The translations under genes and the position numbers were made by a program. The notes under the pieces were generated by a model, which saw nothing but the letters and a program-made list of their open reading frames with translations, ran no database searches and was not told where the DNA came from. From the NCBI GenBank assembly GCA_964611655.1, contig CAZTAY010000016.1, positions 1-27,383 on the forward strand: a stretch of 27,383 nucleotides of DNA, given 5' to 3'. This DNA is from an uncultured Eubacteriales bacterium (GTDB taxonomy: Bacteria > Bacillota > Clostridia > Lachnospirales > CAZTAY01). Positions 3,517 through 26,477 of the stretch are shown piece after piece. Each line of letters starts with the position of its first letter. The stretch's first letter is position 1.

Positions 3517-6060
3517 ATGAGCGAGGAAATTCAATTTGACAAGATAATTGCAACCAATATAGAAAAAGAAATGCGCGAATGTTATATAGATTACGCAATG
3601 AGTGTAATAGTTGCTCGTGCGCTTCCTGATGTTAGGGACGGTCTTAAACCCGTTCACAGAAGAATTTTATATTCAATGCACGAACTGGGACTTGATCCAT
3701 CAAAGCCATACAGAAAATCTGCCCGTATTGTTGGGGACACAATGGGTAAGTATCACCCTCACGGTGACTCATCAATTTATGATGCAATGGTTAGGATGGC
3801 TCAGGAATTCTCTATGCGTTATCCATTAGTTGACGGTCATGGAAACTTTGGTTCTATTGACGGTGATGACCCGGCGGCGCAGCGTTATACAGAAGCTAGG
3901 CTTTCAAAGCTTGCAAAAGAAATGCTAAGGGATATTGATAAGGACACAGTTGACTTTATTCCTAACTTTGACGAACAGGAAAAAGAACCTGTAATCCTTC
4001 CTTCACGTTTTCCGAACCTTTTGGTTAACGGTTCTTCAGGAATTGCAGTTGGTATGGCAACAAATATTCCCCCTCATAATTTGGGAGAAATTATAGACGC
4101 CGTTGTTAAGATAATTGACAATATTATAACTGAATCAAGGGAAACAGATATTGAAGAATTAATAAGCATTGTAAAAGGTCCGGATTTTCCTACAGGAGGA
4201 ATGATACTTGGAACGTCAGGTATCAAAGAGGCATACAGAACCGGCAGAGGAAAAATTAAAGTTCGTGCAAAGACTTCAATCGAAAAAATGAACGGTGACC
4301 GTGAAAGAATAGTGGTTACAGAACTTCCTTATCAGGTTAACAAAGCTAGGCTTGTTGAAAAGATTGCAGACCTTGTTAAAGACAAAAGAATAGAAGGTAT
4401 TTCGGATTTAAGAGATGAATCTGACAGAACCGGTATGCGTATTGTAATTGAGTTAAAAAGAGATGTAGCATCAAACATTGTTCTCAATCAACTTTTTAAA
4501 TATACACAAATGCAAGACAATTTTGGTGTTATTTCGATTGCGCTGGTGGATGATGAACCAAGAACCTTAAACCTTCTTGAAATGCTGAAATACTACATCG
4601 AACATCAAAAAGAGGTTGTTGTAAGAAGGACTAAGTTTGACCTTGATAAAGCAGAAAAACGTGCCCATATTCTTTTAGGACTGCTCATTGCTCTTGATAA
4701 TATAGACGAAATAATAAGAATTGTTCGTAAATCAAGCAACACTCAAATAGCAAAAGAAGCGCTTATGAATATGGAGCTTAAGGTTTCGGAGAACTTATTT
4801 AAAATAGCTCTTATAAAGGAATCAATGCAGCTTGAAGGTGAAGAAAAAATAAGATTTACTAACGAACAAGCCCAAGCAATTATTGATATGCGTTTGGGAA
4901 GGTTAACAGGTCTTGAGAGCGAAAAAATTCAAGGTGAGTTTGATGAATTAATTTCGCTTATAAAAGACTTAACAGAAATACTGGAAAGTGACACCAGACT
5001 TCATACAGTTATTAAAGAAGAACTGATAGAAATTAAATCTAAATTTAATGACAGCAGAAGAACTTTATTAACACATGATGTTGAGGAGTTCAACCTTGAA
5101 GACCTTATAGAAGAAGAACAAAATGTTATTACCTTCACAAGACTTGGTTATATAAAGAGAATACCTCTTGACACATATAGAAGCCAAAACCGCGGTGGCA
5201 GAGGAATTATCGGTATGCAGACAAGGGAAGAGGATTTGCTAAGAGAAGTCTTTGTTTGTTCAAATCATTCGTATATGATGTTCTTTACTAGCCTTGGTAA
5301 GGTGTTTAGGATAAAGGTTTATGAGATCCCTGAATCCAGCAGAACAGCTAGAGGAACTGCTATTGTAAATCTTTTAAACCTTGCACCTGAAGAGAAGATC
5401 ACAGCAATGATTCCTGTTAAGGAAGAAATGGATGAGGACGAAAGATACTTGTTTATGGCAACGAGAAAAGGTGTTGTCAAGAAAAGCAAGGCATCCGAGT
5501 TTAAAAACATCCGAAAAGGCGGCTTGATAGCTGTTAATCTACAGGATGAGGATAAACTAATTTCTGTTTCCGTAACGGACGGCAAAAAAGATATTTTTAT
5601 TGCTACAAGAGACGGTATCGGCGTATTATTCAGCGAAGAGGATGTTAGGCCTACAGGCAGAGCAAGCGCCGGAGTCAGAGGAATCAGGATTAATGAGGGC
5701 GATAAAGTTGCTGCTGTAAGGGTGGTTGACAAAGATCAAAAAATTGCTTTTGTAACAGAAAACGGTTATGGAAAACTAACAACCAGCAGTGAGTTTACTA
5801 AACACAACCGTGGCGGCAAAGGTATGAAAATATATAAGATAACTCAAAGAACAGGAAAAATTGCTGGTGTTGAAATGGTGTCAGAGGAAGATGAACTTAT
5901 GTTAATCACATCCGAAGGTGTTATCATAAGGATTCGTGCAAAAGACATAAGCACCATTGGAAGAGTAACTCAGGGTGTTAAGCTGATGAACCTTGACGAA
6001 AACGTAACGGTTGTTGACGTTGCAAAGATTGTAGCGGAGAACGAGGATGAGCAAAACTAA
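3517..6060 (+). CDS. gyrA: DNA gyrase subunit A
   Basis: [26 protein letters not shown] (active-site Tyr region), YHPHGD (QRDR), and a C-terminal beta-pinwheel repeat region. RBS gggaggaag upstream. Confidence 0.97.
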
Positions 6061-11807: not shown

Positions 11808-11846
11808 TTTGGGAAACTTTTATTGAAAAGTTTCCCAAACGTTTTT
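11808..11846. terminator. Bidirectional intrinsic terminator between convergent rng and the recombinase gene
   Basis: Perfect 14-bp inverted repeat TTTGGGAAACTTTT-ATTG-AAAAGTTTCCCAAA (11808-11839), followed by CGTTTTT on the + strand. Confidence 0.65.
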
Positions 11847-13225
11847 CAAGTCATAATAAAGGTTAGAGTAAGGGATTCTTTATTAAAAATTATTTTACTA
11901 AATAACATGCGTAGTGCCAAATTTTTTTTATCTATTTCTATATCCTTAGATTTTATAATTTCAGAAAAAGTTTCAGGCAATCTTAAACTACAATTTTCCG
12001 TTGAGAGTAAAGAATCTTTTCTATTATCCAATTCAGATTGTAATACCTCTTTTTCTTTGATAAAGTGTATCTTTTTTTCTTTATATTCAGCCAAAGAATC
12101 TATACCTTCCAAGTATGCCAACTTAAGCCGTTCCAGCCTTTCATCAATTTTTTTAATATTTCTCAATAATCCATCGATTTTAACATCAATTTCATCAACG
12201 CTGATTTGACTAAACTCCGAAACAACAGTTGTGGGGATCATATTATCAAGTATATTTGAGATAAGTTCTTCTACTTTAGATACGCTAATATAATTTGAAT
12301 AAGCACATTTACCGGTGCTGTTACCTCCACATCTAAATGCGTGATTACCTTTTGCATCAGATGAAAAGTTAAGTGAGGACCCGCAGCTATGGCATTTAAT
12401 CAAACCAGAAAGCCAATGCTTATAAGTCAGAGGTGGCTTAGATTTTGGTGTTATTTTTTTTGATGTTATTATACTAACTTTTTTAAATGTTTCACTATCT
12501 ATTATTGGTGTATGTACACCTTTATATAAGATACCGTCATATTCAATATTTCCGGCATAGGTTTGTTTGGTTAGTATGCGTTTAATATCATTTGAGCAAA
12601 AGGGTTTACCGCTTCTTTTTTTAATACCCAATTGATTTAGATTTACCGCAACACTATGATAGTATGGAGTTTTAATAAAAGAATCAAATACCAATCTTAC
12701 TATTTTAGCTTCCTCTTCCACAACCTCCATAACTCCGTTTTTCTTTATATAACCAAAAGGAGGCGGTACAAGATGAATTCCTTGACTAACCTTAAAGGTC
12801 ATCCCACGTTTGACTGCTTTGGAGAGCTTTCTTGAATGCATCTCGTTAAGTGCCCCAAGCATTGCATCGGTAATAAGTGATGAATCATCATCTAAAGTAG
12901 GTTCAGTAGCTGAAATTAATTCAACATTATTGCGTTTTAAGGATGATTTATAAGCAATGGACTCTTCGAGGTTTCTTGCAAATCGTGAAGAATCAAAAAC
13001 AAGCACAGCATTAAAATCACCTTTAATGCTATCTTCAATCATCTGCATAAAAGCAGGCCTTTTTCTTGCAGATCTTCCCGATAAGCCTTCGTCGGAAGGG
13101 GATTGATTAGGGCGGAATATTAAGAATATAAATTTTAAGAACTGAATGTTGCTCGAAGTGAAACTGCTATTAAATTTGAATAAAATAATAGGAGTTCGAC
13201 ATTTGCAAATGTATCCTGCAAACAC
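11846..13225 (-). CDS. Large serine recombinase (resolvase catalytic domain, recombinase domain, zinc ribbon, coiled coil). GTG start. Catalytic N-terminus degenerate; possibly inactive or a pseudogene.
   Basis: DEGLSG-x-RKRPAF and FDSSRFARN (DEGxSG...RPxF...DRLxR-like). Recombinase domain (EEEAKIVRLVF...NDIKRILTKQTYAG). Cys4 zinc ribbon (CHSCGSS...FRCGG...GKC). The canonical N-terminal (A)IYxRVS(T) nucleophile motif is replaced by AGYICKC. Confidence 0.75.
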   Translation of the reverse strand: MFAGYICKCRTPIILFKFNSSFTSSNIQFLKFIFLIFRPNQSPSDEGLSGRSARKRPAFMQMIEDSIKGDFNAVLVFDSSRFARNLEESIAYKSSLKRNNVELISATEPTLDDDSSLITDAMLGALNEMHSRKLSKAVKRGMTFKVSQGIHLVPPPFGYIKKNGVMEVVEEEAKIVRLVFDSFIKTPYYHSVAVNLNQLGIKKRSGKPFCSNDIKRILTKQTYAGNIEYDGILYKGVHTPIIDSETFKKVSIITSKKITPKSKPPLTYKHWLSGLIKCHSCGSSLNFSSDAKGNHAFRCGGNSTGKCAYSNYISVSKVEELISNILDNMIPTTVVSEFSQISVDEIDVKIDGLLRNIKKIDERLERLKLAYLEGIDSLAEYKEKKIHFIKEKEVLQSELDNRKDSLLSTENCSLRLPETFSEIIKSKDIEIDKKNLALRMLFSKIIFNKESLTLTFIMT

Positions 13226-19564: not shown

Positions 19565-20638
19565 TTGAACTATTTAGATAAATACGGAGCCAGTGAACGA
19601 TTTTACAATGAAGCAACACTTTATCCATCATTAGATATGTGTAGGGTAGTTTCTCAGTCTAAAGACATTTTTAAGATTGTAGGTGTTGAAGGTGAAATTT
19701 TAGCAGAGGTTTCCGGTAAATTCAGATATGAGACAAAAAGCACAGAGGATTTTCCTGTTGTCGGAGATTTTGTAATGGTTGATAGAACCAGTGACAAAAC
19801 AGGAAATGCCATAATACATCATGTCTTAAACAGAAAAAGTTCGTTTGTGCGCAAGGGCGTTGGTCAAACTAGCCAGACACAGGTGGTAGCTGCAAACATC
19901 GACATTGTTTTTATTTGCATGGCACTTAACAATGATTATAATCTTAGTAGGCTAGAAAGATATGTTTCTATAGCTTGGGATAGCAGGGCAACACCGATTG
20001 TGGTTCTAACTAAATCAGATGTTTGCACTGATGTTTTACGAAAGCAAGATGAAGTTTCAGCTGTTGCAATAGGCGTTGACGTAATAGTAACAACAAGCTT
20101 TAATGAGGCGTCATATGATAAACTTATGCCTTATCTAAAGACAGGGGTTACAGCTTCGTTTATAGGCTCATCTGGTGTTGGTAAATCAACTTTAATAAAT
20201 TGTCTTGCTGGAAAAGAAATATTAACAACTTCTGAAACCAGAAAAGATGACAAAGGACGACATACATCCACAAGTCGGGAGTTAATAGTTTTACCGCAAG
20301 GTGGCATAGTGATTGATACACCGGGAATGAGAGCTATTGGTGTTGAATACGCTGATTTATCAAAATCCTTTTCAGAAATTGACATGCTTTCTAAGCAGTG
20401 CAGGTTCAGTGATTGTTCACATACGAAAGAACCTGGATGTGCTATAAAAAATGCACTAGAAACTGGAGAGCTTGATCAAAGACGTTATGAAAGTTATATT
20501 AAGTTAAAAAAAGAAACCAAGTATGACGGACTTACTTCAAAAGAAATTGAAACAGTCAAATTAAACACAATGTTTGGCGGAGTTGGTGGAATGAAGAAAG
20601 CAAGGAAATTTATGAAAGAAAATAACAAACGGAAATAA
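19565..20638 (+). CDS. rsgA: Ribosome small-subunit-dependent GTPase A (long YjeQ-type with N-terminal OB fold). TTG start.
   Basis: AGGAGG at 19551-19556 then TTG 19565. Circularly permuted GTPase motifs (TKSD, GSSGVGKSTLIN). C-terminal zinc knuckle CRFSDCSHTKEPGC. Confidence 0.85.
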   Translation: MNYLDKYGASERFYNEATLYPSLDMCRVVSQSKDIFKIVGVEGEILAEVSGKFRYETKSTEDFPVVGDFVMVDRTSDKTGNAIIHHVLNRKSSFVRKGVGQTSQTQVVAANIDIVFICMALNNDYNLSRLERYVSIAWDSRATPIVVLTKSDVCTDVLRKQDEVSAVAIGVDVIVTTSFNEASYDKLMPYLKTGVTASFIGSSGVGKSTLINCLAGKEILTTSETRKDDKGRHTSTSRELIVLPQGGIVIDTPGMRAIGVEYADLSKSFSEIDMLSKQCRFSDCSHTKEPGCAIKNALETGELDQRRYESYIKLKKETKYDGLTSKEIETVKLNTMFGGVGGMKKARKFMKENNKRK

Positions 20639-20656
20639 AAAGTACAATACTAAAGC

Positions 20657-20697
20657 AAAGGAAAGGCGTTGGTAACAACGTCTTTCCTTTTACGTTT
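20657..20697. terminator. Bidirectional intrinsic terminator between rsgA (+) and the GyrI-like gene (-)
   Basis: AAAGGAAAGGCGTTG-GTAA-CAACGTCTTTCCTTT (15-bp stem with one G:T pair), followed by TACGTTT. Confidence 0.6.
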
Positions 20698-20706
20698 ACA
20701 GTGGTT

Positions 20707-21189
20707 CTATTTCTTTATAACAGGAATCCAAATTTCACTCTTGTAAGTTGGAGATGTAATATCACCATCCGAATACCACTCTATTTCAGGTGTTTTAGCG
20801 TGTTCGTAACCAGATGTTGGAAGCCATTCCGAGTAAATACGATTCCATAGTTTATGAAGCGCATCAGGCATAGCACCAATTGACTCGAAGATTGCCCAAG
20901 TAGAACCAGGAATGTCTAGGGATAATAAGTGTTCGGGGCAAGTTTTTGTTGTTGCTGTACCAATCCAGTAATCAAACCCATTGTTATACATGTTTGCGCA
21001 AACGCCTAGAAGACCAGATGGTTCTCTGTTTGAATATGAACATATATCTTCTGATTGTTCTTTTGAAAGGTTCTGCCACATCTGAGGAATTTTTGAATGG
21101 TTTTCTTCATTTTCTAATGATATAAACTCCTTTATACCTACAATAGTGAACCCTTCTTTGTTTTCAATTCTGTAATTCATAGCTATCAC
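20707..21189 (-). CDS. GyrI-like small-molecule-binding domain protein (AraC/BmrR effector-binding domain fold), stand-alone
   Basis: GFTIVGI...IPQMW...YWIGTAT...IPGSTWAIFESIG...IYSEWLPTSGYEHAKTPEIEWY...EIWIPV matches the GyrI-like duplicated fold. GGAG RBS. Same strand as the WYL pair, 71 nt downstream, with no hairpin between them. Confidence 0.7.
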   Translation of the reverse strand: MIAMNYRIENKEGFTIVGIKEFISLENEENHSKIPQMWQNLSKEQSEDICSYSNREPSGLLGVCANMYNNGFDYWIGTATTKTCPEHLLSLDIPGSTWAIFESIGAMPDALHKLWNRIYSEWLPTSGYEHAKTPEIEWYSDGDITSPTYKSEIWIPVIKK

Positions 21190-21260: not shown

Positions 21261-22223
21261 TTAAACTAATAAAACTTGCTTTTCTATCCTCTCACGGATT
21301 TGATCTAAAAAATCCTTGTGACCCAAAACTTTTACTACAGGTCCAAAGCTAAGTATCCTGATGAGCAGTTCTGACTCATCCCTGATATCGTAAAATATTC
21401 TGCAGATGTAGCTATCTGTAGCTTCGTCGTATTCAGTTTGTTTTTCCATAGAAGCAAATTGCAACATACAACGCTCTAATGCATTGCGGTATGGTAATAT
21501 CTGAAGAACTATAGGCTCTTTAAAAGTGTTTTTCTCTATAACATTTCTATCTGTTTCTATAGAAAAGAAATTTTGTGACACATCCACAGACTTTATTCTT
21601 GATAAATTCAGTACCACCTTCCCCATTCGGTTACCTTTAGTGTTGACAGCAATTAGCCGAAATTTATCATCTCGCTCCGAATAGTTTAGTTTTACTGGCA
21701 TAAAGCAGTTGTTGGAGCGTTTGCCTTTTCCACTGTCATACTCAATTCTTAACTCCCTTTTGTACCTTATGGCTGATATAATGGTTCTGAAATTATTTTT
21801 ATACTGTTGGCTGTCGTACCTGTCTCCATCTGCTGCAGCATCAAAACAATGGAAATCGCTATTTTCGTACAATGTCTCTACATCTTCTAATAAGTCATTA
21901 AGTCGTTTTATTTGTGATTCATCAAGAAAAAGAGTAATTCTTTTATCATTTAGTAATGATTTTAACCATGACTTCTGTAGAGTTGTTATAGGTGTTTTAA
22001 GGTTATTTGAATCAAGCCTATTCAATAAATTCCATTCGCTGGACTGTAAGTATGGCATAATAAAGAATGAGCTTTCAGAAAAAGCGTTAGAGTTTATGAT
22101 TTCTGTAATTTCATCATAGGTTAGCGGATTTTTTTGTGCCGCTTCCAAAACCTTTCGTATTGCTCTGAAGTAACAGCTATAAATTTCCGAAAACAACTCC
22201 AAATTAATCTGCCCCCTCTTCAC
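21261..22223 (-). CDS. HTH-WYL-WCX transcription regulator paralog B (PafC/YobV-like architecture)
   Basis: N-terminal helix-turn-helix-like segment (LTYDEITEIIN). WYL-type domain (RELRIEYDSGKGKRSNNCFMPVKLNYSERDDKFRLIAV...LSRIKSVDV). C-terminal WCX-like tail (IRILSFGPVVKVLGHKDFLDQIRERI). GTG 22223 overlaps the upstream gene by 20 nt; an alternative TTG 22202 with an AGAGGGGG RBS gives a 1-nt gap. Confidence 0.65.
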   Translation of the reverse strand: MKRGQINLELFSEIYSCYFRAIRKVLEAAQKNPLTYDEITEIINSNAFSESSFFIMPYLQSSEWNLLNRLDSNNLKTPITTLQKSWLKSLLNDKRITLFLDESQIKRLNDLLEDVETLYENSDFHCFDAAADGDRYDSQQYKNNFRTIISAIRYKRELRIEYDSGKGKRSNNCFMPVKLNYSERDDKFRLIAVNTKGNRMGKVVLNLSRIKSVDVSQNFFSIETDRNVIEKNTFKEPIVLQILPYRNALERCMLQFASMEKQTEYDEATDSYICRIFYDIRDESELLIRILSFGPVVKVLGHKDFLDQIRERIEKQVLLV

Positions 22224-23445
22224 AATACATTTTGTGCATATTAGCTATATCACTATAGAATCTTTCAATAACGACGCTGTTTGTACCTTCAAGAGCAAGG
22301 ATTCTTCCTGTAAATGTCTTAATCCATGGTGTCATCTCATTTGTGTCATAGCATTCCTTTGTGTATAGGAAAGTATTGGTATCTAGTTTTATAAGGCTTC
22401 CGCCTCGTCCTTCCCTATTGATTCTTTCTATAACGAAATGTTCATTTTCTTCATTAATAAATAACTTCATAGACAGCAATTCAATTCTGTTTCTACCGCC
22501 AAAACCCACGCCCCAGACCTTATCAATGTTTGTGTTCAGTTTATTACGTAGATTAATAGCGTCAGGTGACTCTGCCAAGATTTTAACGGATTTAATATAG
22601 TCAATCCTAAAACAAGAAAAGCGGTTTCTTTTTATGTTATGTACACAGACATATCTTCTGCCAGTAGTTGCGGATAGAAAAATCTTAAGAGGAATACCTT
22701 CATAATAAGTAGTAGTATTTGTGCGATTGCTGGCGTTTTCAAAGCTAATGGTTCTGTTTTGCCTTATTGCAGACAATAAATCAAATAAAATTCCGTCCTC
22801 CAGTGTATGTACTATGTAGTGGTGCTTAAATGAAAATATATCATTCACTAAATCGTTATTATCCAGGATAAAGCTTCCAACCTCACCGAAAGGAGCCGAC
22901 TCCATAAAAAATTTTACTGCATCCGGCAGCAAAGGAAAATCTTTTCCTAGATTTTCAAAATAAAGGCTTGAAAGGGCGTAGAGAATTGATTTACCATGTT
23001 TTTTGTTAGTCAATATTCCCTCAGCAACATACTCAATACATTTCAATCTAACGGTTTGCACATCAAATATCTTTTCGCTTTTGAGACAGATAATTTCAGT
23101 TAAATTTGCTACAGACAAATAAGAACCGTCTGACAGAGAATCAATTAAATAAAAATGCAGCATAATATCGTTTGAGGTAAAGCTTTTGGATTTCCATGCT
23201 GCGTATAATGGATTTTGGCTAATATTTGCCGAGTCAAGAGAAATATTTGTTTTCTTGCCACTCGATGAATATTCCCATCTTATAAACTCTCCAAGATAGG
23301 ATTCAATTCTTCTTTTTTCGTTGTCATATGTACGGAGGGATTTGCTCTTGAAATCTCCACGGGATTTAAAACCATAAATATAAAAATCTCGCATATAATC
23401 CCTTATTTTATTAAAGTTTTTAATTAACTCAGAAAAAGCAGCCAT
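22204..23445 (-). CDS. HTH-WYL-WCX transcription regulator paralog A, with an about 130-aa insertion between the HTH and WYL domains
   Basis: N-terminal DeoR-like recognition helix (KSLRTYDNEKRRIESYL). WYL-type domain (IPLKIFLSATTGRRYVCVHNIKRNRFSCFRIDYIKSVKIL). WCX-like C-terminus (IKTFTGRILALEGTNSVVIERF). AAGGTGA RBS. Divergent from rtcB. Confidence 0.6.
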   Translation of the reverse strand: MAAFSELIKNFNKIRDYMRDFYIYGFKSRGDFKSKSLRTYDNEKRRIESYLGEFIRWEYSSSGKKTNISLDSANISQNPLYAAWKSKSFTSNDIMLHFYLIDSLSDGSYLSVANLTEIICLKSEKIFDVQTVRLKCIEYVAEGILTNKKHGKSILYALSSLYFENLGKDFPLLPDAVKFFMESAPFGEVGSFILDNNDLVNDIFSFKHHYIVHTLEDGILFDLLSAIRQNRTISFENASNRTNTTTYYEGIPLKIFLSATTGRRYVCVHNIKRNRFSCFRIDYIKSVKILAESPDAINLRNKLNTNIDKVWGVGFGGRNRIELLSMKLFINEENEHFVIERINREGRGGSLIKLDTNTFLYTKECYDTNEMTPWIKTFTGRILALEGTNSVVIERFYSDIANMHKMYCEEGAD

Positions 23446-23560: not shown

Positions 23561-24793
23561 ATGTTTGTTATCTCAAACGAAAAAACAAAAGTACCAATAA
23601 AAATATGGTTACAGGATGAAAGCAAGGTGGAAAACTCTTGTTTGGAGCAGGCGTATAATCTGTCTAATCTGCCATTTCTACATAAATGGGTGTCCCTGAT
23701 GCCAGACACTCATACAGGAATGGGAATGCCCATAGGCGGAATTATTGCAACAGAAGGTGTGATTATCCCTAATGCAGTTGGAGTTGACATAGGTTGTGGA
23801 ATGGGTTTCATGGGAACAGATATCAGGGTTTCTGATATAAAAGATATTAAAACAGGCAACGGAAGCTTTATCCAAGCTATTGTGGGCGATATATTAAGAA
23901 ATATTCCCGTTGGTTTTAATCATCACAAACAAGCCAAAGACTGCTTGACACTTGATATGGCAAAGAATGAAATGAATAAATACGAGAACAACGCTGAATT
24001 GATTAGTGAAATGGAAGCTGGCTATTTTCAAGTTGGCACATTAGGTGGCGGAAATCATTTTATTGAGTTGCAGGAGGATGACGAAGGCTATTTGGGAATT
24101 ATGCTACACTCCGGCAGTCGACACTTTGGAAAAAAGATTTGTGATTTATTTCAGCACAAAGCAAAAGCTCTGAACCAAAGATGGTTTTCAGAAGTTCCCG
24201 ATCATTACCGTTTGGCTTTCCTGCCTGTAGATACTGACGAGGGAAGGCAGTATATAAATTGGATGAATCTTGCTCTTGATTTTGCTGCAGAAAACAGACA
24301 AAAAATGATGTTAGCTGTAAAAGAAATTCTAAACAGATATATTACAAAGTTCACAGATATAAAATATTCGTATACCCTAGAAATCAACTGTCATCATAAT
24401 TATGCTGCAATGGAACATCATTACGGAAAGAATGTTTGGGTTCACCGTAAGGGTGCAATCAGAGCGAGAAAGGGTGACATGGGTATAATTCCCGGTGCAA
24501 TGGGATCATACAGCTATATTGTAGAAGGTCTGGGGAATGAGATGAGTTTTCATTCCTCATCACATGGTGCTGGAAGACTATACTCAAGAACAGCAGCAAT
24601 GGCTAACTTTTCAACAGAGGAAGTAATGCTTGACCTAAAAGAAAGTGGTGTTGTGCTAGGTAAGCACAACAAAAAAGACGTTGCAGATGAAAGTCGTTTC
24701 GCATACAAAAATATAGATGAAGTTATGGAAAACCAGAAGGATTTGGTTAAACCTATTAAGCGTTTGAAAACAATTGGAGTGGTTAAAGGATAA
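23561..24793 (+). CDS. rtcB: RNA-splicing ligase RtcB (3'-phosphate/5'-OH RNA ligase)
   Basis: Metal and GTP-binding motifs MPDTHTGMGMPIGG, GVDIGCGMG, GGGNHFIE, HRKGA and HGAGR. 410 aa (E. coli-length RtcB). AAGGAG RBS. No rtcA adjacent. Confidence 0.9.
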   Translation: MFVISNEKTKVPIKIWLQDESKVENSCLEQAYNLSNLPFLHKWVSLMPDTHTGMGMPIGGIIATEGVIIPNAVGVDIGCGMGFMGTDIRVSDIKDIKTGNGSFIQAIVGDILRNIPVGFNHHKQAKDCLTLDMAKNEMNKYENNAELISEMEAGYFQVGTLGGGNHFIELQEDDEGYLGIMLHSGSRHFGKKICDLFQHKAKALNQRWFSEVPDHYRLAFLPVDTDEGRQYINWMNLALDFAAENRQKMMLAVKEILNRYITKFTDIKYSYTLEINCHHNYAAMEHHYGKNVWVHRKGAIRARKGDMGIIPGAMGSYSYIVEGLGNEMSFHSSSHGAGRLYSRTAAMANFSTEEVMLDLKESGVVLGKHNKKDVADESRFAYKNIDEVMENQKDLVKPIKRLKTIGVVKG

Positions 24794-24892
24794 TTATGCT
24801 TAGGCATATTATATAGGTCTTTCAATCTATGCTAAGGGGTAAGACCCTTGCGGTGCTGTAGGCGTGCCTATTGGTATACCGAATGAAAGAAC

Positions 24893-25047
24893 GGCTCTGA
24901 AATGAGCCTTTGCATTCCGATATTATCGGACATGCGACTGGTATGTCGGCGGTTCGAATCCGCCCTTCGAAAGAAGTAGCTCAGAGGTAGAGCGTACCCC
25001 AAAATGGCAGGCCTCTAAGGGTTGAGGTTCGACTCCTCCAGAATGAA
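24893..25047 (+). ncRNA. Structured tRNA-like element(s): two T-arm mimics and one D-arm mimic without a canonical acceptor or anticodon stem
   Basis: GGCGG-TTCGAAT-CCGCC (24948-24964). TAGCTCAGAGGTAGAGC D-arm (24977-24993). GAGG-TTCGACT-CCTC (25024-25038). Long hairpin GCAT-TCCGAT-att-ATCGGA-C-ATGC (24912-24935) and GGCTC-tgaaat-GAGCC (24893-24908). Could not be folded into a cloverleaf by hand. Confidence 0.3.
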
Positions 25048-25382
25048 ATTCCAAGCGAGAATATGAAGGGAAAGTCTGGCTAGCTTGTGTGACTTGCAGG
25101 CAGCAACGAGAATTTTGCCAGCATTAAGGGGGATATCGTATAAAACTTTGATTCCTATTACTGTTAAAACTTGTATTTGAGTTAGAAACCCCGATATGTC
25201 GAATTTTTTTCTATACAGTAACCATGGCTGATTATAGAAAATTGACCGACAATTGTATGTTTTGAGCACTTGAATACTTGGACACTAGCCGGAAACAAAA
25301 TGGTATACTGAACCCATAATCCGCAAAAGAATTGTGGACTTTCCCTGTTGATTCTCAAGTGTCATGAATGGAGATGAAAAAA

Positions 25383-26477
25383 ATGAAGGTTATCATTACA
25401 GAAAATGAAAGAGGATTATTATTCAAAAACGGCAGTTTTCTCCGTATGCTTAAACCTGGCAAACACATAGTTTGGAGCATTCTTGGTGAAAGTGTTAAAA
25501 TAAGTAAAATTAATGGTATTGTTAAAATTGAAGACATTGATAATAATATTTTATTAAAAGAAAAAGAATTTGAAAATTCGATTGTAACTATCGATGTTCC
25601 TGACGGATATTTTGCCATTAGGTATGAAGATGGAAGGGTGGCAGAAACCCTTTCAACAGGTTCATACTGTATTTGGAATATCCTACGCAAGAGTACATTC
25701 CGATTAATTGATTTAACAAAGCCTGACATAACAGAGCTTGGCTCAAAAGACTTATCGGCTATTCCTCTCAAACATTACATAAGGGTGGAAGTTCCAAGCG
25801 GTTTTATGGGTTTACTGTACTTTGACGGTTCTTTTCAGCGAACACTTGAAAACGGTACGTATTTCTTCTGGAATGGAAGTGTTAAGGTAGAATACCAACT
25901 TGTGGAAATGCGTGTTCAGCAAATCGACATATCTGGTCAGGAGATTCTTACGGCAGATAAAGTAAGTTTGCGTATAAACTTCGTTTGCAGCTATAAAATA
26001 ACTGATCCACTTCGCATTCTAACAGAAATTAAGGACTACAAAATTCAGATACATGTTTTAACGCAACTTATTCTTAGGGAATATGTTGGGAAATACCGTT
26101 TTGATGAGCTTTTGGAGCAAAAAGAAAATATCGCTGCATTTATCCTAGAAAAGCTTAAAGAAAAACAGGATGGACTGTATGTTGAGTTTTTTGATAGTGG
26201 ATTGAAGGACATTGTTCTTCCGGGAGAAATTCGTGACATTATGAATACTGTGTTGGTAGCTGAAAAGAAGGCACAGGCAAATGTAATAACTCGCCGTGAG
26301 GAGGTTGCGTCAACCAGAAGCTTGCTTAATACTGCAAAGTTGATGGAAGAAAACAAAACACTCTTCAAACTAAAAGAACTTGAATACCTTGAAAAGATTT
26401 GTGATAAAGTGGGCAATATTTCAGTGGGTAGCGGTAATTTGTTGGGACAACTTAGCGATATAATTGCTGTTAAGTAA
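25383..26477 (+). CDS. SPFH/band-7 (slipin-like) protein with a triplicated N-terminal beta-hairpin motif and no transmembrane segment
   Basis: GGAGA then ATG 25383 (MKVIITENERG); the supplied ORF starts at 25368. Three tandem repeats of about 55 aa (G..G..F.R.L..G.Y..WN pattern) are followed by an SPFH core (DKVSLRINFVCSYKITDP...REYVGKYRFDELL...VEFFDSGLKDIVLPGEIRDIM...AEKKAQAN). Confidence 0.7.
   Translation: MKVIITENERGLLFKNGSFLRMLKPGKHIVWSILGESVKISKINGIVKIEDIDNNILLKEKEFENSIVTIDVPDGYFAIRYEDGRVAETLSTGSYCIWNILRKSTFRLIDLTKPDITELGSKDLSAIPLKHYIRVEVPSGFMGLLYFDGSFQRTLENGTYFFWNGSVKVEYQLVEMRVQQIDISGQEILTADKVSLRINFVCSYKITDPLRILTEIKDYKIQIHVLTQLILREYVGKYRFDELLEQKENIAAFILEKLKEKQDGLYVEFFDSGLKDIVLPGEIRDIMNTVLVAEKKAQANVITRREEVASTRSLLNTAKLMEENKTLFKLKELEYLEKICDKVGNISVGSGNLLGQLSDIIAVK

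Follow-up and report, generated by a model that had tools for sequence, protein, structure and literature searches.

A predicted tRNA-mimic RNA with a circularly permuted tRNA-like domain upstream of slipin genes in bacterial RtcB modules

RtcB repair modules are widespread in bacteria, and their substrates and cofactors are largely unknown. In the YrlA Y RNAs, encoded in rsr-yrlBA-rtcBA loci, the tRNA-like domain shows the order V region, T stem-loop, closed acceptor stem (AS) and D stem-loop (Chen 2014). A further association was predicted in 2016 by Burroughs and Aravind, in which some bacterial RtcB adjoins a Band-7 protein and a non-coding RNA (ncRNA) termed 'b7a-tRNA', as related by Wang et al. 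(2018, bioRxiv 10.1101/312249). In the account of that preprint, the b7a-tRNA is said to 'strongly resemble' authentic tRNA, YrlA occasionally adjoins Band-7, and the Band-7-associated tRNA-like RNA is given as experimentally unvalidated at that date. Here we describe a related element in a stretch of 27,383 nucleotides (nt) from an uncultured Eubacteriales bacterium (contig CAZTAY010000016.1; the whole stretch is hereafter called the window), where positions 24939-24999, between rtcB and a Band-7/SPFH gene of the slipin family, encode a circularly permuted tRNA-like domain whose topology is that of the tRNA-like domain found in YrlA Y RNAs. The element is very probably a conserved tRNA-mimic RNA of the slipin module and, judged against the preprint's description, we infer that it corresponds to the Band-7-associated tRNA-like RNA, or YrlA next to Band-7, predicted in 2016. 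What is new here is the structural definition of the RNA and its extent, the kind itself having been already predicted and left uncatalogued: RNAs of this kind are absent from Rfam 15, and in the literature searched no further paper beyond Wang et al. 2018 uses the term 'b7a-tRNA'.

The permuted tRNA-like unit

From 5′ to 3′ the unit comprises the 3′ strand of an anticodon stem, a variable loop of 4-5 nt, the T-arm, a closed acceptor, U8-A9, the D-arm, N26 and the 5′ strand of the anticodon stem. In the window these parts fall as follows:

24939-24999, + strand: permuted tRNA-like unit 1 (covariance model R1, 73.3 bits, E about 1e-23; covariation; minimum free energy fold)
24940-24943 with 24995-24998, + strand: closing anticodon-like stem of unit 1, GGUA with UACC
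24944-24947, + strand: variable loop UGUC of unit 1
24948-24964, + strand: T-arm 1
24965-24976, + strand: closed acceptor hairpin CUUC-GAAA-GAAG, between T-arm 1 and the D-arm
24977-24978, + strand: U8-A9
24979-24993, + strand: D-arm
24994, + strand: G26

In all aligned spacers the stem before T-arm 1 pairs with the bases after the D-arm (GGUA/UACC in the window, GGGUAG/CUACCC, GGCAA/UUGCC, CUGCA/UGCAG, UUGUG/CACAA and GUGA/UCAC in the related loci L001, L008, L005, L012 and L011, respectively), and the segment from the T-arm to the D-arm is a closed hairpin of 4-7 bp, so the unit is a circularly permuted tRNA. A preliminary description of the region had considered acceptor and anticodon stems not derivable and the cloverleaf missing; equivalents of both stems are nevertheless found in the hairpin and the closing stem listed above, and a cloverleaf-equivalent does exist, with its arms in permuted order. 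The minimum free energy fold of the isolated 61-nt unit is the four-way junction of the model (-20.6 kcal/mol, 50% of the ensemble, z = -2.4).

Covariance model R1, built from 17 curated units, reached at least 37 bits in 50 of the 87 slipin-bearing loci, and each of these hits precedes slipin on its own strand. Weaker R1 hits (12-27 bits) were obtained in the same place in about 25 more loci, with a longer acceptor hairpin and a more diverged D-arm. In the alignment of 43 strong hits, which was fitted to R1 and in which pairing is thus somewhat inflated, standard pairs made up 97.0% of cells versus 63.6% after shuffling, cells changed on both sides numbered 259 versus 73, and the covariation score was 0.825 versus 0.198, with structures slid by 1-3 columns scoring 0.20 or less. 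The low slid controls and the compensations seen by eye in the raw sequences argue for a real signal. Altogether, 16 of the 18 pairs of unit 1 changed on both sides and all four helices covary. Moreover, U8, A14, G18G19, U54U55C56 and A58 are invariant in 43/43 units (T-loop UUCGAAU, D-loop AGAGGUA), and the Levitt 15:48 pair is G:C in 35 of them, A:U in 4 and other in 4.

The arms and hairpins from which the preliminary description started are all present in the sequence read: T-arm 1 is GGCGG-UUCGAAU-CCGCC, T-arm 2 is GAGG-UUCGACU-CCUC at 25024-25038 (+), the D-arm TAGCTCAGAGGTAGAGC (UA-GCUC-AGAGGUA-GAGC) spans 24977-24993 with its U8-A9, and perfect hairpins lie at 24893-24908 (GGCTC-TGAAAT-GAGCC) and 24917-24929 (CCGAT-ATT-ATCGG). 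Within the 27.4-kb window the string GGTTCGAMTCC, with one mismatch at most, occurs only at 24951 and 25026 (shuffle mean 0.33; 6/100 shuffles reach 2), and the 17-nt D-arm, with 3 mismatches allowed, has a single occurrence (shuffle mean 0.04); these strings are therefore not dispersed repeats there, a possibility that had been raised against the element. A true tRNA had been raised as well, and none was detected: ARAGORN returned 0 tRNA and 0 tmRNA on the window, and the Rfam tRNA model (RF00005) gave a partial match from the D-arm to T-arm 2 (model positions 8-63) of 21.2 bits versus a gathering score of 29. The Rfam tmRNA model had no match in the window and no family reached its gathering score. 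With permissive thresholds the top Rfam match was YrlA (RF02553) at 24944-24993, which scored 30 bits (E = 2e-4), its gathering score being 69, and in which the T-arm, the closed acceptor hairpin and the D-arm align to model positions 27-81 of 114; in 8 other loci the same unit gave matches of 31-38 bits, equally below that score.

Linkage to the slipin gene

The following genes of the window belong to the module:

21261-22223, - strand: WYL-domain protein of 320 aa, second of a divergent regulator pair (Pfam WYL, PADLOC WYL; pair conserved in relatives)
22204-23445, - strand: WYL-domain protein of 413 aa, divergent from rtcB (Pfam WYL)
23561-24793, + strand: rtcB, 3′-phosphate/5′-hydroxyl RNA ligase (Pfam RtcB 1.8e-111)
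25383-26477, + strand: Band-7/SPFH slipin gene, the invariant partner of the RNA (Pfam Band_7; conserved start MKVII at 25383; longest open reading frame, ORF, from 25368)

The spacer between rtcB and slipin measures 589 nt in the window, and the RNA always lies on the slipin strand, 230-600 nt upstream of slipin, as a rule within a module that also comprises rtcB and two WYL regulators. The order WYL-WYL, divergent rtcB, a gap of 470-660 nt and slipin recurs in L001, L005, L008 and L011-L013, and homologues of the 413-aa WYL protein with 44-72% identity occupy the same position in L001, L005, L011-L013, L017, L018 and others. Carriers of the module include Alkaliphilus crotonatoxidans, an uncultured Clostridia metagenome-assembled genome (MAG), and Eubacteriales, Bacillota and Lachnospiraceae MAGs. 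An earlier genome scan with a 3-sequence slipin alignment gave 6 loci, and a metagenome scan with a 7-sequence alignment gave 80. Among the latter the module occurs as WYL-WYL and, divergently, rtcB, RNA and slipin (arrangement A), as WYL-WYL, RNA, slipin and an rtcB whose product belongs to another clade and is 27-31% identical (arrangement B), and as WYL-WYL and, divergently, RNA and slipin with no rtcB within 4 kb on either side (arrangement C; L060, L061 and L067). In all of them alike the RNA is found directly upstream of slipin. On the other hand, a Defluviitaleaceae rtcB that is 80% identical and stands without WYL and slipin genes (L002-L004) has no spacer and no R1 hit downstream, which provides a natural negative control.

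The RNA is thus tied to slipin, because it is present with slipin where no rtcB lies within 4 kb and absent at rtcB in the absence of slipin; it tracks the slipin gene and not rtcB or Rsr. The preliminary reading as a YrlA-like tRNA mimic of the RtcB module largely holds, YrlA being the top match and the permuted fold covarying, but the partner is slipin, and the scores remain below the YrlA threshold. A tie to rsr finds no support, as no TROVE/Rsr gene was found among the annotated ORFs of the window or the Pfam-annotated neighbours of L001-L007.

The partner protein belongs to a set of more than 7,900 slipin homologs scored in public data, under the source name 'slipin family protein', and its residues 171-343 match stomatin structures (PDB). 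In the AlphaFold model (mean predicted local distance difference test 81.5), three beta repeats of five strands each at the N terminus precede an SPFH domain and a helix of about 60 residues, and the best Foldseek hits of the model are stomatin, HflK/C, prohibitin, erlin and QmcA, which form rings or cages. No membrane segment is predicted for the protein. The major vault protein (MVP) aligns over about 400 columns, that is, over the whole architecture, although stomatin, HflK and prohibitin score better. This predicted architecture fits an oligomeric scaffold, which does not by itself prove RNA binding. The abstract of Burroughs and Aravind reportedly presents SPFH/Band-7 modules as scaffolds with a cognate novel tRNA-like RNA. 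Neither the slipin nor the WYL proteins matched a specific NCBIfam family, and in PADLOC only the WYL models matched, so the module is not a catalogued defence system. No slipin relatives were found on viral contigs, which gives no sign of a phage-borne clade.

A related island of Escherichia coli, located between yjbD and lysC, carries a slipin 33% identical to that of the window, a nucleotidyltransferase and a zeta-toxin-family gene (examples are L094:4660-4991 of STEC639, CP061233.1, and L095 of WAT, NZ_CP012380.1), and, among 5426 complete E. coli genomes, 1425 contain it with a coverage of at least 80%. In the 529-nt gap upstream of its slipin there are a sigma-54-like TGGCAC-N5-TCGCA, the hairpin GGGGG-UCAAA-CCCC, the T-arm GGGUUCGAUUCCC (4805-4817) and a closed hairpin of 7 bp; this leader has no RefSeq annotation and no Rfam match.

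Other features of the neighbourhood are recorded here as observations. In the WYL-WYL/RNA/slipin arrangement the stretch separating the WYL gene from the RNA contains, at about 420-500 nt upstream of slipin, a near-invariant string, GTTCGCA(G/A)CTTTTTTTCC(G/A)TGA (L027, L031, L034, L038, L040, L043, L044, L054, L058, L066, L072, L073, L076, L081 and L088). It forms the 3′ half of a terminator-like hairpin followed by a T-run and may be an operator or promoter element, because it is better conserved than a plain terminator needs to be. In the human-gut loci L046-L055 slipin is directly followed, at a distance of about 140-400 nt, by ordinary tRNA-Tyr(GTA) and tRNA-Ser(GCT) genes (ARAGORN). On the far side of the WYL pair of the window, 19565-21189 holds rsgA (19565-20638), which encodes a GTPase of the small ribosomal subunit, next to an effector-binding gene of Cass2/GyrI-like type. 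TrcR of Anabaena represses rsgA, rtcB and a slipin gene together, and translation stress induces them (PMC10272220). A large serine recombinase gene with Resolvase, Recombinase and Zn_ribbon_recom domains (11846-13225, - strand) is located about 8 kb upstream of the module, and serine-recombinase fragments occur about 5 kb from the WYL genes of L005 and L007, which hints at mobility of the neighbourhood.

Extent of the conserved region

Besides unit 1, which forms its core, the conserved structured region (about 24827-25141, at least 300 nt) includes a covarying 5′ P2/P3 element, a second tRNA-like unit in degenerate form and, on the 3′ side, the conserved motif GCCNG...GGAUAYCG. The positions of the preliminary description, 24893-25047, are just the middle third of this region (about 24827-25141 or beyond). 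Its remaining parts, with a hairpin close to the slipin gene, are:

24827-24853, + strand: RNA start, with CUAUGC, the P1 hairpin AAGGG-GUAAGA-CCCUU (24834-24849) and a conserved GCGG
24854-24882, + strand: 5′ core, P2 (UGCUG 24854-58 / UGGUA 24872-76) around P3 (UAGG-CGUG-CCUA 24859-70), then UACCGA
24881-24929, + strand: two hairpins read from the sequence, GAAUG...CAUUC around GGCUC-UGAAAU-GAGCC (24893-24908), and CCGAU-AUU-AUCGG (24917-24929)
25008-25024, + strand: degenerate anticodon-arm-like hairpin CAGGC-CUCUAAG-GGUUG (4/5 stem pairs; loop fits YU-NNN-R-N)
25024-25051, + strand: second degenerate unit, T-arm 2 (25024-25038) and mini-hairpin GAAU-GAA-AUUC (25041-25051)
25052-25141, + strand: 3′ domain, with purine-rich GAGAAUAUGAAGGGAAAG, a hairpin region, GCCAG (25117-21) and GGAUAUCG (25131-38)
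25321-25337, + strand: hairpin CCGC-AAAAGAAUU-GUGG, just before the slipin ribosome-binding site (equivalent CCGC...GYGG in relatives)

At the 5′ side, UAUGC, the P1 hairpin and GCGGUGC are kept in window-type relatives, and the GCGGUGC core is also found in the second arrangement. Segments of the 5′ and 3′ motifs were curated and aligned by covariance model, extraction by regular expressions being unreliable. In a MAFFT alignment of 29 loci (A7), 88.8% of the P2/P3 cells are paired versus 69.7% after shuffling, 7 of 8 pairs changed on both sides, and the covariation score is 0.59 versus 0.23, with slid controls at 0.18 or less. The compensations include UGCCG/CGGUA, UGCGC/GCGUA, UGCAC/GUGUA and CAUGG/UCAUG, and a conserved UAU(G/A)CCG follows P2/P3. 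Of the two hairpins preceding unit 1, relatives keep a CCG-loop-CGG hairpin at the second position, the first being variable or lineage-specific.

Downstream of unit 1, L001, L008 and L015 carry a complete second permuted unit, with T-arm, closed acceptor, GCCAAGUGGUUAAGGC-type D-arm and an anticodon arm of 5-bp stem and 7-nt loop, and R1 scores the second unit of L001 at 48 bits. Many other relatives show T-arm 2 with covarying stems and one or two anticodon-arm-like hairpins. T-arm 2 of the window is taken as real because relatives carry a T-arm with covarying stems at the same position, and the window copy is a reduced version of their second unit: R1 gives 15.1 bits (E = 0.02) at 25013-25068, and 25001-25055 has no thermodynamic signal (z = +0.8). 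A strict anticodon-arm scan did not call the hairpin at 25008-25024 in the window; it is the positional equivalent of well-formed hairpins of the relatives, with 5-bp stems and 7-nt loops such as CUGAUAA. Such mimics, with a loop C/U-U-NNN-R-N, are seen upstream of slipin in L001 (7510-7530), L008, L016-L024, L027, L034, L054 and others. Their 'anticodons' vary by locus (UCA, GUC, GUA, CUC, GAA, ACC, UAC, UUU, GAU), and their stems covary (UCAAG/CUUGA, UUAAG/CUUAA, GGCAA/UUGCC) or stay AAGAC/GUCUU.

In the 3′ domain, GCCNG and, about 8-14 nt further on, GGAUAYCG form a conserved pair of motifs, and GGATAYCG occurs 80-460 nt upstream of slipin in 57 of 80 loci versus 0.9% of shuffles. Pairings GCAG/UUGC and CGGG/CCCG proposed by eye for this domain were inconsistent across sequences and were discarded. 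Between the GGAUAUCG motif and the hairpin at 25321-25337 the window has, within 25139-25320, about 110 extra A/T-rich bases in comparison with close relatives, so that the motif is found 237 nt upstream of the ORF start at 25368 in the window versus about 120-180 nt in those relatives; the extra stretch holds CGATATGTCG and then AATTTTTTTC (about 25192-25211), a weak terminator-like feature not flagged by the scan. The 5′ domain ends (24877-24882) in GGUAU(A/G)CCG, which resembles the 3′ GGAUA(C/U)CG (25131-25138) without being complementary to it, and these may be two copies of one protein-binding or tertiary motif. At the boundary with rtcB, 3 nt past its stop, a palindromic hairpin ATGC-TTAG-GCAT (24796-24807; ATGC-GAAA-GCAT in L001) may be an element of RNA processing or stability.

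Scans for sigma-70 promoters and intrinsic terminators on the + strand from rtcB to slipin found nothing convincing, a weak negative given that the scan missed an evident hairpin-plus-T-run upstream of the RNA in L088. Co-transcription of rtcB, the RNA and slipin is adopted as the default because no promoter or terminator was detected between them.

Proposed role and comparison with known systems

As a whole, the observations are probably best explained by a tRNA-mimic RNA acting as the cognate cofactor or scaffold of a slipin/RtcB repair module, although the scaffold or cofactor mechanism itself, built by analogy, is put forward as a tentative proposal. The RNA would be transcribed together with rtcB and slipin and would fold as a tRNA-shaped elbow, which host tRNA enzymes may modify as they do for YrlA. 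It could then serve as cognate cofactor or scaffold of a slipin oligomer, by analogy with Y RNA/Ro60 and after Burroughs and Aravind, and the RNA-slipin assembly might recruit or organise RtcB or tRNA-shaped substrates during the repair of cleaved tRNA or rRNA. A more speculative and rather improbable extension is a vault-like ribonucleoprotein, in which an uncatalogued multidomain RNA of about 300-400 nt (5′ P1-P3; one or two permuted units, often with anticodon-loop mimics; 3′ GCCNG...GGAUACCG) would be joined with a soluble slipin oligomer resembling a mini-MVP. Under WYL control, such a particle would detect or buffer damage to tRNA and hand substrates to RtcB, and the family would extend from Clostridia to the E. 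coli island (about 1/4 of genomes).

Several points weigh against the scaffold proposal. The discrete RNA species and its transcript ends are predictions from the DNA, and the contact with slipin is suggested by analogy. The window has an acceptor mimic of only 4 bp and a degenerate second unit. When 14 sequences were folded with RNAalifold, just one variable hairpin emerged in the 3′ domain, and a long-range helix between 5′ GCGG(U) and 3′ (A)CCGC of GGAUACCGC is not established: three of its pairs are invariant, and the fourth is A-U where the 5′ motif starts with A (read by eye, confirmed in L092) and mismatched in L019, L022, L024 and L031. The tRNA calls made by ARAGORN upstream of slipin are confined to L015, L029, L045 and L056, whereas the b7a-tRNA, in the preprint's wording, 'strongly resembles' tRNA. 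Moreover, a leader acting in cis would explain the constant spacing from the slipin start, and the conserved hairpin in front of the ribosome-binding site, as well as an RNA acting in trans.

Among the alternatives, the tRNA-shaped units might act as sentinels or decoys that bait tRNA-cleaving toxins, such as phage or colicin-type anticodon nucleases, either with their cleaved (2′,3′-cyclic-phosphate) or re-ligated state being read by WYL or RtcB or with the nuclease being competitively inhibited. Consistent with it, at least one 5-bp YU-NNN-R-N hairpin, T-arms included, is found in 48 of 76 loci versus 6% of shuffles, and in relatives the stretch from the unit to the 3′ motif frequently contains such hairpins other than T-arms, with covarying stems and varying anticodons; in the literature, damaged tRNA fragments activate RtcR of Salmonella and YrlA has been suggested to act as a competitive inhibitor, and WYL regulators are ligand-binding sensors according to their family annotation. 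We nevertheless regard the bait as unlikely, since the window has only a degenerate anticodon-like hairpin, the best-conserved unit is devoid of any anticodon loop, Salmonella YrlA is not cleaved by the relevant nuclease (literature) and a link between WYL and the RNA is absent from the data of this analysis. The idea of the preliminary description that the RNA might be a decoy or ligand of the WYL sensors is likewise speculative.

Decidedly unlikely, in our estimate, is a leader acting in cis, that is, an attenuator or riboswitch-like 5′ untranslated region controlling slipin (and the downstream rtcB of arrangement B) that may dock a tRNA, a tRNA-binding protein or slipin. The constant position of the RNA immediately upstream of slipin and in the same orientation agrees with it, as do the 3′ motif, usually about 115-250 nt from the start codon, the conserved hairpin before the ribosome-binding site, whose L005 copy scores terminator-like with a CTTTTTC tail while that of the window is not flagged, and the absence of a separate promoter or terminator in the insensitive scan of the window. 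However, bacterial cis-regulatory Rfam families (riboswitch, T-box, leader) have no match to 24700-25400 at E up to 10, the invariant nucleotides of the elbow and the duplicated units point to a mimic of tRNA more than to a receptor for it, and the insert of about 110 nt in the window, with the motif at -237 versus about -120, argues against strict spacing.

That the RNA is a true YrlA binding an Rsr (Ro60) encoded elsewhere in the genome is very improbable, in spite of YrlA being the top Rfam match and of ACCGAAUG (24878-24885), which is one mismatch from the Ro60 motif GNCGAAN0-1G (Chen 2014), has GCCGAAG as its counterpart in some relatives and was assigned no partner strand. The score is under half of the gathering threshold, with a good alignment confined to the tRNA-like part, and GCCGGG, GCCAAA and GCCACA are seen at the position of ACCGAAUG as well, so the GNCGAA-like string is not conserved across the family; besides, no TROVE gene appears in the window or the Pfam-annotated L001-L007, and the invariant neighbour is slipin. 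Finally, a decayed tRNA gene, a tRNA-derived att remnant of an accessory-block insertion (as the preliminary description had also suggested) or an odd real tRNA gene can be dismissed by covariation and synteny despite the tRNA-like strings, the recombinase gene at 11846-13225 and the partial Rfam tRNA match of 21 bits, because ARAGORN is negative and that match falls short of the gathering score, a tRNA does not have its arms in the order T, acceptor, D, compensatory changes in all helices of 43 sequences indicate selection on the fold, and the same element is kept in the same gene context in 50 loci with unrelated genomic neighbourhoods. For annotation, these T-arm/D-arm strings are thus neither tRNA pseudogenes nor att sites.

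Returning to the tRNA-mimic cofactor of the slipin module, its relation to known systems can be summarized as follows. With tmRNA and with viral and other tRNA-like structures it has in common a T-arm-based tRNA mimic inside a larger RNA; it differs from tmRNA by lacking an aminoacylatable acceptor end and a tag ORF, in agreement with the negative ARAGORN and Rfam tmRNA searches. It shares with canonical tRNA the near-consensus T- and D-arms, the U8, A14, G18G19, U54U55C56 and A58 residues, the Levitt pair and the variable loop of 4-5 nt, whereas a closed hairpin of 4 bp, lacking CCA and a free 3′ end, takes the place of the acceptor stem, unit 1 is devoid of an anticodon loop and the arms are permuted.

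The vault particle combines MVP, with its SPFH-like shoulder, vault RNAs and the TROVE-domain TEP1. As in vaults, the slipin beta repeats, SPFH domain and long helix align with MVP and a small structured RNA is genetically coupled to them, but slipin has only three beta repeats, its best matches are stomatin, HflK and prohibitin, and it is known here from genes and a model; the vault analogy may therefore serve as a lead, not a test. TROVE and Band-7 are presented in the preprint of Wang et al. (2018, bioRxiv 10.1101/312249) as alternative partners of bacterial tRNA-like RNAs.

With YrlA the likeness comprises the order V region, T-arm, closed AS and D-arm, the anticodon-stem-like closing helix, the conserved tertiary nucleotides, the covarying 15:48 Levitt pair and the genomic association with RtcB. 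The differences are the 30 bits versus a gathering score of 69, a Ro60-binding helix recognisable at most as the near-match ACCGAAUG, a Band-7/slipin partner instead of Rsr, WYL regulators instead of RtcR, and the setting of the unit, which is part of a far longer RNA that has conserved 5′ and 3′ domains and additional T-arm or anticodon-arm units. In comparison with the b7a-tRNA, taken only as described by Wang et al. 2018, the conserved unit is permuted and of YrlA type, and neither the window nor most of its relatives are recognised by tRNA finders; 'YrlA next to Band-7' may be the better label. On the other hand, the RNA lies beside a Band-7 gene and RtcB, is tRNA-like and fits the proposed cognate RNA of an SPFH/Band-7 scaffold in RNA repair, and the conserved order rtcB, RNA, slipin agrees with the description of a tRNA-like ncRNA adjoining Band-7, typically with RtcB. 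Its structural definition, multidomain extent and family breadth make the 2016 prediction testable and would allow an Rfam family to be built, for a locus in which a covariation-backed tRNA mimic is partnered with a stomatin-like scaffold instead of Ro60.

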